The notes under the pieces: generated by a model | What the model was told of the DNA's origin: nothing | The model's database searches: none | What the model saw: the letters and a program-made list of their open reading frames with translations, nothing else | Position numbers and translations under genes: made by a program | From: an uncultured Candidatus Poseidoniales archaeon | GTDB taxonomy: Archaea > Thermoplasmatota > Poseidoniia > Poseidoniales > Thalassarchaeaceae | DNA: 23,745 nucleotides | Reading direction: 5' to 3' | Assembly (NCBI GenBank): GCA_964645485.1 | Contig: CAZXZO010000026.1 | Coordinates: 1 to 23,745 of the forward strand | Shown: piece after piece, positions 16,915-18,737 of the stretch | Layout: each line of letters begins with the position of its first letter | Numbering within the stretch: the stretch's first letter is position 1

Positions 16915-17130
16915 TCACTCTTCTTCGGAGGTGGCTTCTGTTGGTGCTTGTTCTGTAGATTCAGTTGCTACTGGTTCAATAGATGGGCTAGCATCATAAC
17001 CACAGCGACCACAGGTTGAGCGGTTGGAATGATTTGCCAAAAATACGCCTGGACCACAGATCTTGCAATGCGCATTCTTACGAACTAATTTGCCATCTTC
17101 AACAGAATAAAGGCTTGAACGGTTTGACAT
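16915..17130 (-). CDS. rps27ae: 30S ribosomal protein S27ae (eS31) with acidic C-terminal extension
   Basis: [39 protein letters not shown] zinc-finger signature; TAATG overlap with the rps24e stop. Confidence 0.96.
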
Positions 17131-17495
17131 TATTCTTCACCTCCCGAAACATCATCTTCAGTTTCAATTTCTGCGGGTGGTGCAACATCTGGCACCTCAG
17201 CAGGTGCCTCTTCTTCCACAACAACAACACCATGTCTATCAAGAATGTATTGAGGTTCAATTTGCATTGCTTCTGGTGAATCATAAATGAACGCCAGTCC
17301 AGTAGTCAAAGGTTGACCGAACCGTGTGTTCACATCTTTTACGACAACATTTGACGCTGATGAACCCGGTTCAAGTGATGCAACTTTGCTTCGCAAGTTA
17401 CTCCGGCTTGGAGTTGCTGATTGTTCATGCCGCAACTGAAATCTGATTTCGATACGACTCAATAATGAATTTTCTTTTCTGTCTACTATTTCCAT
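17130..17495 (-). CDS. rps24e: 30S ribosomal protein S24e (eS24) with acidic C-terminal extension
   Basis: [31 protein letters not shown] motifs. ATG 17495 with GGAGG RBS is preferred over the track's 17519. Confidence 0.95.
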
Positions 17496-17508
17496 AATAA
17501 TTCCTCCT

Positions 17509-17901
17509 TCAGCGCACATTAACCTTTAGTGCGTAATTTCCTGCCCTCTCAATGTTTAGAATTGATGAAATTTCTGAACGTTCTGGGTTGAGTACTACCA
17601 CGTACCCCTGCCAATCAGAACTTAGATGTGCACCCGGGCAGAACGGACATTCCGGGTTGGTTGGTTTAACTCGCTCCATGTCATCCTTCAATTCTTTAGC
17701 CAATGCCTTGTGTTGGTCATCAGAAGGTTGCAAACCATTCTTGTTAATGTATACTAATTGAACTAAAGCCTTCTTGGTTTTTGCCGATACATCATTGTCC
17801 GACTTAAGGCACCATCCAAGATTGCCAGTGGCAACTTCGACAATTCTGTGACACTCGGAACAAGCAAGTTCGACCTTCTTTGACACCTTATTCACCGCCA
17901 T
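17509..17901 (-). CDS. spt4: Transcription elongation factor Spt4 (RpoE'') with large internal insertion
   Basis: ACSECHRIV ... CPFCPG ... LSSDWQGYVVVLNPERSEIS ... GNYALKV, in the canonical position directly after rpoE1. Start is ATG 17901 or GTG 17886 (GGTGA RBS). Confidence 0.9.
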   Translation of the reverse strand: MAVNKVSKKVELACSECHRIVEVATGNLGWCLKSDNDVSAKTKKALVQLVYINKNGLQPSDDQHKALAKELKDDMERVKPTNPECPFCPGAHLSSDWQGYVVVLNPERSEISSILNIERAGNYALKVNVR

Positions 17902-18439
17902 TTACTAACCATTCGTGAGCACCAAGTCCAGGTTGCTTACAGGTAAGTCCAATCTTTGATGAGCGTGGGTCGTGAGTGTTCAGTGAAAGTGTGACAACCC
18001 TAGAGCGCAGTGGGTCTGCAATAGAGAGTTGAGCGCCAGAACGGCTACCGATGATTTTGCCCTCATTTTGGTTGATTTGGACAGGTTCTTCAAGAATCTG
18101 AGACTTGTGAAGTAAGCCTTCAAGTGGACCAATCTGAACGAACGCTCCAAATTCAAGGACCTCGGAAACTGCACCGTCAACTATCTCGTTGCTGTCAAGA
18201 CGGAAAAGTACAGCCTTGAAACGGACATTCTGGTAAATCGCTCCATCTCCATGGATGATTCTTCCTCGACCAATCATCTCGTGATCATAAGTAACAATGA
18301 CAAAATTGTCATCATCATCAAACTTGCCTTCAAACGCCTGATGCGCTAGTCGGTCAACGTGTTGACTCAATGATTGCCCCTCGCGGATGTATTCCGCGGG
18401 GATTCTGATAGTATCCTCTCTGACTTCAAGTGTGTACAT
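17888..18439 (-). CDS. rpoE1: DNA-directed RNA polymerase subunit E' (Rpo7)
   Basis: MYTLEVREDTIRIP, GRIIHGDGAIY, S1-domain FGAFVQIGPLEGLLHKSQI, KIGLTCKQPGLG. ATG 18439 has GGAGG 8 nt upstream (alternative ATG 18454). Confidence 0.97.
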   Translation of the reverse strand: MYTLEVREDTIRIPAEYIREGQSLSQHVDRLAHQAFEGKFDDDDNFVIVTYDHEMIGRGRIIHGDGAIYQNVRFKAVLFRLDSNEIVDGAVSEVLEFGAFVQIGPLEGLLHKSQILEEPVQINQNEGKIIGSRSGAQLSIADPLRSRVVTLSLNTHDPRSSKIGLTCKQPGLGAHEWLVNGGE

Positions 18440-18446
18440 CTTTTTT

Positions 18447-18560
18447 CCCTCCATTCACCGCTCGCCGAGAGGTGTGCCATGGAACGGAAGGGTTCACAAC
18501 CCTCCCGTCCCTCACAGGCGACGCCTCCAGAAGAGAGGTTTCCAGTGGCTCGCCGACCTG
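18447..18560 (-). ncRNA. Candidate structured cis-regulatory leader RNA (or small ncRNA) upstream of the rpoE1 operon
   Basis: About 65% GC by manual count. 14-bp hairpin at 18481-18511 and a second stem 18551-18560/18515-18523, whose non-Watson-Crick pairs are G.U only on the minus strand. No known RNA family recognised. Confidence 0.5.
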
Positions 18561-18737
18561 CTCCCCCTTTATCAGCAAACCGGTTTCAGTGAATTGACTG
18601 GCAATTCTAATAATAACTAATTCCAGCCTAAAATCAAAATTAATCGCACTGAAATCTATGCTTGAAACCGCTACCAATCATTAACCCGAATCTACGTACC
18701 CGAATATTTTTATGTTCATTTATCTTGATCGAGGAAT

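Follow-up and report, generated by a model that had tools for sequence, protein, structure and literature searches.

The window analyzed here is a stretch of 23,745 nucleotides (nt) from an uncultured Candidatus Poseidoniales archaeon of the family Thalassarchaeaceae, within Marine Group II (contig CAZXZO010000026.1 of assembly GCA_964645485.1), in which a 283-nt intergenic gap separates two divergent transcription units, the rpoE-spt4-rps24e-rps27ae operon on the minus strand and a short-chain dehydrogenase gene on the plus strand. The four reading frames of the operon overlap, which makes control of all of them from a single 5' site possible. The mechanically listed start of the rpoE reading frame (ATG at 18454) falls within the Shine-Dalgarno (SD) sequence, and the conserved start is the ATG at 18439. 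Upstream of this codon lies an island rich in guanine and cytosine (GC), with 59-62% GC in 100-nt windows compared with 35-45% in the flanking DNA. An earlier reading of this DNA from its letters alone (the sequence-only reading) had put the interval 18440-18575 at about 65% GC; the island in AT-richer intergenic DNA is indeed present, but the measured value is 60.3%, with 63.9% in the rod-shaped structure described below and 43.9% in the whole genome. We conclude with high confidence that the island encodes a conserved, structured, cis-acting leader of the operon, and we tentatively propose that this leader alternates between two folds, one of which bears the signature of a kink-turn.

To place the 5' end of the leader, we relied on the geometry of its promoter. 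When every copy of the element GGTCGGCG in the genome was listed, 14 of the 33 were found 8-10 nt after a TATA-like octamer, and the genes behind this combination include those for two transfer RNAs (tRNAs), the 16S and 23S ribosomal RNAs (rRNAs), S19e, S15, S12, L15e and FKBP, as well as rpoE and others. The mature 5' ends of the two tRNA genes lie only 8-9 nt past GGTCGGCG; transcription therefore starts within that gap, and GGTCGGCG is a core-promoter element that is not itself transcribed. The same spacing of TATA box and GGTCGGCG upstream of rpoE predicts a transcription start at 18543, and the covariance-model match to the leader begins at 18542. This geometry supports a caveat of the sequence-only reading, namely, that a TATA box at 18567-18574 would start transcription near 18545 and exclude the outer stem (CAGG-T-CGGCG/CGTCG-CCTG) that the same reading had drawn. 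The 5' arm of that stem (CAGGTCGGCG, 18560-18551) is promoter DNA upstream of the predicted start, and the stem is consequently discarded. The motif TCGGCGAGC, previously remarked on as a duplication, does occur at both 18556-18548 and 18468-18460, but the repetition has no meaning: the first copy belongs to the promoter, and the second is not conserved, reading CAGTGAGC, CGACGAGT or TTTTGGGC in relatives whose rpoE protein is 96-99% identical.

By the same measure, the rpoE leader is exceptional in length. It is predicted to span about 104 nt, compared with 11-23 nt for other ribosomal-protein genes with this promoter type, and the distance from GGTCGGCG to the ATG is 112 nt at rpoE and 19-31 nt at those genes. 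The leader is thus an unusual insertion of about 90 nt relative to other genes of this promoter type. A whole-genome search with the leader located a second copy of GCTGATAAAGGGG.AG.AGGTCGGCGAG in front of the L15e gene. Neither a terminator between the leader and rpoE nor a separate promoter before rpoE was found in a sigma-70 and terminator scan that is uninformative for an archaeon, and the coverage of contigs from three RNA runs is confined to the 3' genes of the operon and does not include the leader, which makes them uninformative on its expression or start. The GGTCGGCG element reads GGTCGCC or GGTGG in relatives and is present on contigs C2, C5, C6, C7, C9, C10, C19, C31, C36 and C42 of the host genome; it may mark a translation-apparatus regulon or an extended initiator region in Poseidoniales. 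Being common to tRNA, rRNA and ribosomal-protein genes, it offers an aid for predicting transcription starts in these genomes. At loci L171 and L182 (genus g18, Poseidoniaceae), the promoter spacer instead holds a second copy of TGA.GGACGG (TTGAAGGACGGCAG or GTGACGGACGGCAG), which replaces the GGTCG element.

The sequence-only reading had suggested collecting rpoE upstream regions from related genomes. When this was done, the leader was found directly upstream of rpoE in 30 relatives, at 80 loci and at 29 further loci of families f1 and f3, where f1 denotes Thalassarchaeaceae and f3 is presumably the order's second family, Poseidoniaceae. All genera examined in the two Poseidoniales families have it, as a single copy per genome, and its structure is conserved in both. 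A first covariance model (R1), based on a single genus group, proved too narrow, matching 26 of 40 f1 genomes and 14 of 65 f3 genomes, and was replaced by a model built from 52 homologues (R2), which matched 38 of 40 and 44 of 65, respectively. Each R2 match adjoins the separately located rpoE gene, with one match per genome. Reading by eye showed that the f1 and f3 genera missed by R2 (g8, g13 and g18) still carry a divergent leader with the invariant core. No R2 match was obtained in 43 genomes of f4 and 2 genomes of f5, the remaining families that were sampled within the class, or in the 126 other genomes of the phylum that were searched. In f4 genomes, about 25 nt separate the TATA box from the rpoE ATG. 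The f5 genomes (L154 and L156) share a leader of roughly 100 nt upstream of rpoE (...GGCCCCAGCCUGGGCUGGAC...) that is unrelated to the one described here and may be an independent structured leader.

Gene order in the operon is kept at all loci of both families. Beyond the promoter, the upstream intergenic DNA cannot be aligned among relatives. Within the leader, the invariant bases are U..UC..GAGG and UGA.GGACG, with the exception of L173 and L174, in which the last motif ends in GGACA and not GGACG. Rfam 15, another check that had been put forward, returned at gathering score only two tRNAs elsewhere in the window, so that the leader matches no known family; at E values up to 10, the leader region gave only chance-level matches (mir-671, RAGATH-16, HDV-like and snoR14). 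ARAGORN found no tRNA or transfer-messenger RNA in the leader region, and literature searches found no description of this rpoE leader.

Folding of the predicted transcript yielded a single hairpin (state A, the rod), whose helices from base to tip are ACC:GGU, CUC:GAG, GGAGG:CCUCU and GCC:GGC, followed by the bulge UGUGA and an apical 14-base-pair (bp) hairpin (P3). The energy of this fold is -46.8 kcal/mol on the minus strand compared with -39.6 kcal/mol on the plus strand, with z about -3 on both (minus, -3.1). The operon strand is thus more stable than its complement by about 7 kcal/mol, owing to G.U pairs. Across 68 homologues, 89.0% of the pair cells of the rod are paired, compared with 52-58% when the partner strand is slid; both sides have changed in 22 of 33 pairs, compared with 9-16 in the slid controls; and the covariation score is 0.32 versus about 0.10, with 0 of 500 shuffles reaching the observed values. 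In a set of 52 sequences, 93.4% of cells are paired against 50-63% when slid, and 19 pairs have changed on both sides against 8-11. These statistics come from model-fitted alignments of related sequences, which lean towards their own structure, but a wide margin remains, and plain MAFFT alignments within groups recover the rod as well. P3, which forms the fifth helix, is paired in 92.9% of cells with both sides changed in 7 of 13 pairs, and its many G.U pairs across homologues make it strand specific; helix 3, GGAGG:CCUCU, is paired in 91.7%. The 14-bp hairpin at 18481-18511 with two G.U pairs, as proposed from sequence alone, is accordingly present and covarying, and the conserved pairing and the better fold of the minus strand uphold the idea that an RNA structure specific to that strand is under selection in the operon's 5' leader.

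All homologues fold into this same nested rod despite their differing 3' halves, and in nearly all of them, 2-5 nt separate it from the predicted 5' end and 1-10 nt from the SD. In the folding model, the rod is the ground state and the most stable fold, and it leaves the SD free, with an unpaired probability of about 0.4-0.9 in the free ensemble. The pairing of the CCUCU at 18472-18468 with the SD, which the sequence-only reading had envisaged, is not favored, since this segment pairs with the GGAGG at 18528-18524 and the SD is free in the most stable fold.

The rod could, in principle, be the whole of the element, serving as an operator at which a protein of the operon (eS24, eS31, Rpo7 or Spt4) binds the conserved UGA bulge, next to the SD, or as a 5' stabilizer against 5'-to-3' exonucleases. 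It is the most stable fold, with the strongest covariation; its edges near the predicted 5' end and the SD suit a stabilizer and a steric operator alike, and the operon context with its overlapping genes suits classical feedback. We nevertheless regard this explanation as rather unlikely. A stabilizer needs no bases that are invariant across an order, and the invariant UGA and the GA of GGAGG are left unexplained. As for an operator, no resemblance to 16S rRNA was detected, with nothing beyond 7-9-mers shared between the two, and the single 10-nt match to 23S rRNA looks like chance and does not covary between families. This match, GUGAGGGACG with a hairpin at about position 708 of the 23S rRNA, was considered as a case of mimicry and rejected. 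Three such 10-mers occur in the genome, which is the chance expectation; one genus has UCAGGGACG at the rRNA site but keeps AUGAGGGACG in its leader, and in Poseidoniaceae, the leader has GAAGGACG but the rRNA site is still GAGGGACG. Separately, 120 nt at C10:37709-37829 match the 3' end of the archaeal small-subunit rRNA model (positions 1346-1467, 94 bits); the complete 16S gene (C10:32564-34029) lies 3.7 kb upstream.

Three features remain that the rod does not account for: its 5' strand is invariant while its 3' strand drifts, the UGA is constant although unpaired, and GGC and GCC surround a variable stretch. The invariant bases all map to a second hairpin (state B) that can be drawn in the 5' half of the leader, with the sequence 5'-CCUCUCUUCU-G-GA-GGC-(GUC)-GCC-UGU-GA-G-GGACGGGAGG-3'. 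In its core, two GA dinucleotides face each other, the second preceded by a 3-nt bulge with a C-G pair beside it, and a 3-bp GGC/GCC stem is capped by a variable loop. A long second helix follows, in which the pyrimidine run at 18538-18529 pairs with GGGACGGGAGG (18511-18501), the 5' strand of the large apical hairpin of the rod. The CCUCU-CUUCU-GGAGG noted by the sequence-only reading is present, at 18538-18524, and spans this pyrimidine run.

The core agrees with the kink-turn in three elements that can be read from the sequence. At the sequence level, the bases for tandem sheared G.A/A.G pairs are in place (18513-18512 opposite 18527-18526), the 3-nt bulge lies directly 5' of them, and helices flank them on both sides, with GGC/GCC pairing in 99% of cells and the helix past the G.A pairs in 96.7%, compared with 51-70% for slid partners. 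In the 68 homologues, G1b, A2b and L3 (U) are each found in 68 of 68 sequences, and G2n and A1n are found in 67; the bulge is always 3 nt long, with no insertion or deletion, and the adjoining pair is C-G in 63 and U.G in 5. Over the 12 standard pairs of state B, 97.3% of cells hold, compared with 51-70% when slid. The first 46 nt of the transcript alone adopt the state B topology in the folding model, at -17 kcal/mol, and the divergent genus g18 (L168) shows two more compensated positions, with U-A and C-G where f1 has C-G and U-A. The invariant columns of the leader coincide exactly with the positions predicted for the kink-turn. As judged from base identity and pairing, the core of state B therefore carries a kink-turn signature, from which a kinked geometry is predicted.

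The invariance of the 5' half might alternatively reflect a constraint on DNA, such as a palindromic transcription-factor site of the CTCYRGAG type shortly past the start, or else a decoy ribosome-binding site or a short upstream reading frame, and some observations can be read in this way. In several relatives, CCTCCGGAGG is a perfect palindrome, and the bulge invariably supplies AUG or GUG as its R-U-G, 9-11 nt past GGAGG. But the palindrome is imperfect in most genomes, that of the host included, and the 3' strand covaries so as to keep the RNA pairing, with G.U pairs giving a strand-specific fold. The hairpin past the putative start measures 30 nt in some groups and 31 nt in others, and neither a frame nor a peptide is conserved beyond four codons. 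Explanations of this kind are thus improbable.

States A and B are built from the same nucleotides and are mutually exclusive. When state B was enforced in the folding model, the best structure had an energy of -40.1 kcal/mol, compared with -47.3 kcal/mol for the rod, and the 3' strand of P3, released from its partner, paired with the SD region, while neighboring bases also paired around the start codon. Modeled SD accessibility fell from 0.58 to 0.00 in this leader and from a median of 0.40 to 0.065 over 82 homologues. The sequestration of the SD inferred earlier from the letters is thus retained in altered form: SD-like and anti-SD-like segments do exist, but the SD is hidden only in modeled state B, and the anti-SD is the segment 18491-18482. 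In L074, CCACC together with an SD of GGUGG looked like a compensating change for anti-SD pairing, but it was treated as chance, since L065 has the A without a change in the SD.

The reading that we favor, at a confidence somewhat short of even, is that the leader is a two-state kink-turn switch operated by a protein, probably L7Ae. A strong promoter of the type used for tRNA, rRNA and ribosomal-protein genes (TATA at 18574-18567 plus GGTCGGCG) would drive the leader from near 18543, and state B would form from the 5' half, the first part to be transcribed. The nascent hairpin would then have two possible fates. Displacement by the downstream strand would give the open rod, in which the SD and start codon are free and translation would be on. 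Capture of state B on the nascent RNA by a kink-turn-binding protein, most likely L7Ae, would release the 3' strand of P3 (CCCUUCC..., 18491-18482) to pair with the SD region and turn translation off. Free protein in excess would in this way be expected to turn down the whole translationally coupled operon.

Several observations weigh against this proposal. Covariation in state B is thin, with only two covarying pairs (C-G to U-A in 7 sequences, plus one other), because both of its arms are nearly invariant. Position 3b.3n is G.G, G.A or A.C, and position 7 is mismatched throughout. The folding model, which has no term for G.A pairs, prefers an inner register that is one base off, and the minimum-energy folds of the 5' halves of homologues mostly do not reproduce the exact kink-turn register, although the topology is the same. 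The model also places the rod 7 kcal/mol below state B in this leader, and across homologues the median difference is 13 kcal/mol, with a maximum of 29; state B would consequently need kinetic trapping together with protein binding. Natural 3' halves hide the SD better than shuffled ones in 23 of 24 representatives (mean, 0.12 versus 0.29), but these were mononucleotide shuffles on related sequences, and the result is suggestive and of modest weight. The kink-turn site lies 60-75 nt from the SD, unlike known L7Ae operators, which are located at the ribosome-binding site. Finally, a strict kink-turn-hairpin pattern matched six times in the whole genome, which is about the chance number, and only the rpoE leader match lies in an untranslated region (UTR), so that no regulon emerged.

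The existence of two alternative folds with differing modeled SD accessibility, together with some conserved bases that are unpaired, would also be expected of a small-molecule riboswitch or of an ion or temperature sensor, with the hairpins as the aptamer and the SD-like and anti-SD-like segments as the expression platform. We consider this highly improbable: no Rfam family is matched, the folds are a plain rod or hairpin with neither a junction nor a pseudoknot, and the genes encode RNA polymerase, elongation-factor and ribosomal proteins and do not belong to metabolism or transport. A regulatory leader, as the sequence-only reading had supposed, is still the best description, but nothing points to a small molecule.

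L7Ae, the general kink-turn binder of archaea, uses kink-turns in the 5' regions of its own and the nop5 messenger RNA (mRNA) to repress them (PMC5539422), and the host genome carries both l7ae (C2:73378-73755) and l30e genes. In Thalassarchaeaceae, the start region of l7ae reads ACAC-GA-GG-(7 nt)-CC-AAU-GA-GUGU, which has the same build as the core of the rpoE leader. One strand of this hairpin contains the SD, and the bulge and first G.A pair hold the start codon. The 4-bp helix that flanks them is shared among genera and is weaker in the host genus. This textbook kink-turn hairpin (loci L198-L226; C2:73755-73830 in the host genome) fits a conserved autoregulation of L7Ae in Marine Group II. 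As a prediction drawn from the likeness of the two motifs, the l7ae hairpin supports L7Ae as the ligand of the rpoE leader. The positions of all features are collected in Table 1.

Table 1. Positions of the leader, its predicted structures, its promoter and the operon genes in the window
Feature	Position	Strand	Remarks
5' leader RNA (predicted)	18440..18543	minus	about 104 nt; conserved upstream of rpoE across Poseidoniales
TATA box TGATAAAG of operon promoter	18567..18574	minus	aligns with TTTAAATG, CTTATACA or ATTAAATA at equal distance in about 110 relatives
Promoter element GGTCGGCG	18551..18558	minus	between TATA box and start site; DNA, not RNA structure
Predicted transcription start	18543	minus	G preceded by T, +/-2 nt; placed 23 nt after TATA octamer and 8 nt after GGTCGGCG
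State A (rod)	18457..18539	minus	single hairpin, nt 5-87 of predicted transcript; nested helices, 5-nt bulge and P3
P3, GGGACGGGAGGGUU-GUG-AACCCUUCCGUUCC	18481..18511	minus	14-bp hairpin with two G.U pairs; rod apex
P3 3' strand (CCCUUCCGUU C)	18482..18491	minus	modeled anti-SD when freed by state B; pairs with 18447-18456
UGUGA	18512..18516	minus	5-nt rod bulge; in kink-turn reading, L1-L3 (18516-18514) and G1b A2b (18513-18512)
Upstream GGAGG	18524..18528	minus	rod, pairs with CCUCU 18472-18468; state B, G2n, A1n and first two G of C stem
CCUCU	18468..18472	minus	paired with GGAGG 18528-18524 in favored fold
State B (kink-turn-type hairpin)	18501..18538	minus	97.3% of pair cells hold, 68 homologues
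State B, non-bulged strand	18538-18529	minus	
State B, G2n A1n	18527-18526	minus	
State B, C stem	18525-18523 with 18519-18517	minus	
State B, loop	18522-18520	minus	
State B, bulged strand	18510-18501	minus	
Shine-Dalgarno GGAGGG of rpoE	18447..18452	minus	4 nt past rod base; arrangement kept in 30 relatives
rpoE start codon ATG (MYTLEV...)	18437..18439	minus	ATG TAC conserved in 30 relatives, SD 7-10 nt upstream
Operon rpoE/Rpo7-spt4-rps24e-rps27ae	16915..18439	minus	Pfam matches; reading frames overlap or abut
rpoE/Rpo7	17888-18439	minus	S1 and SHS2 domains (Pfam)
spt4	17509-17901	minus	Pfam
rps24e	17130-17519	minus	Pfam
rps27ae	16915-17130	minus	Pfam

In the host genus, the Spt4 protein encoded in the operon (17509-17901, minus strand) has 130 residues, of which the Pfam Spt4 model matches only residues 84-128. 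The first zinc-binding CxxC is CSEC, at residues 14-17, and tblastn matches in relatives, which are weaker and shorter, suggest that about 60 residues were inserted or added before the second (CPFC).

The operon rpoE-spt4-rps24e-rps27ae is kept across the archaeal domain, and Marine Group II, uncultured and globally abundant, is among the most abundant groups of planktonic archaea. The known regulatory RNAs of archaea are few, and we know of none for this operon. It is conceivable, and we advance this more guardedly than the switch itself, that Marine Group II couples the production of Rpo7 (a stalk subunit of RNA polymerase), the elongation factor Spt4 and two small-subunit proteins to free L7Ae, or to another kink-turn binder, by means of a bistable leader. 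The core of the leader is invariant across the whole order, and the mechanism proposed is a concrete one that would link ribosome and RNA polymerase production. If it is true, L7Ae control through kink-turns would no longer be limited to simple roadblocks at the ribosome-binding site but would include allosteric switching by refolding, a design of interest for synthetic kink-turn circuits. The leader would then work much like a riboswitch that senses a protein, and no regulatory RNA would have been assigned to this universal archaeal operon before it.

Three groups of known systems come closest to the leader. The bulged strand, GCC-NRU-GA-GG, reads, as we take it, like the kink-turn strand of U4 small nuclear RNA and like a C box (RUGA), and the other strand, YNGA, presumably resembles a D box, being exactly CUGA in some Poseidoniaceae. 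Unlike box C/D RNAs and U4, the rpoE leader has neither guide regions nor a second pair of boxes and is part of an mRNA leader. A box C/D small RNA was accordingly rejected, there being a single C/D-like kink-turn and a snoR14 match of 14.9 bits against a gathering score of 40 (E = 4.4).

Bacterial ribosomal-protein leaders also govern polymerase genes, as in the S4 leader of the alpha operon (rpsM-rpsK-rpsD-rpoA-rplQ) and the L10 leader of rplJL-rpoBC. The rpoE leader resembles such leaders in being structured, in preceding a mixed operon of ribosomal-protein and polymerase genes, in the translational coupling of these genes and in its lineage-specific distribution, and a covarying, conserved structure is indeed found upstream of such an operon here. 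It differs in that comparison with 16S and 23S rRNA detected no mimicry of the rRNA site of an encoded protein, the operon encoding small-subunit proteins, and in that its likely ligand is encoded outside the operon. In archaea, candidate leaders have been described for S15, eL15 and L4, and none is listed for eS24, eS31, Rpo7 or Spt4 (Eckert and Weinberg 2020, PMC7247131).

The nearest counterparts are the L7Ae operators of l7ae and nop5-fibrillarin (Daume et al. 2017, PMC5539422). The genes behind the rpoE leader (for a polymerase subunit, Spt4, eS24 and eS31) are not known targets of L7Ae, the binding of which is predicted here, and with its motif 60-75 nt upstream of the SD, the leader could act only by refolding. 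Both nonetheless lie in an archaeal 5' UTR and are alike in their paired GA dinucleotides, 3-nt bulge and short canonical stem, and the effect to be expected from the rpoE leader would be the same as that of these operators, namely, translational repression of genes of the transcription and translation machinery.

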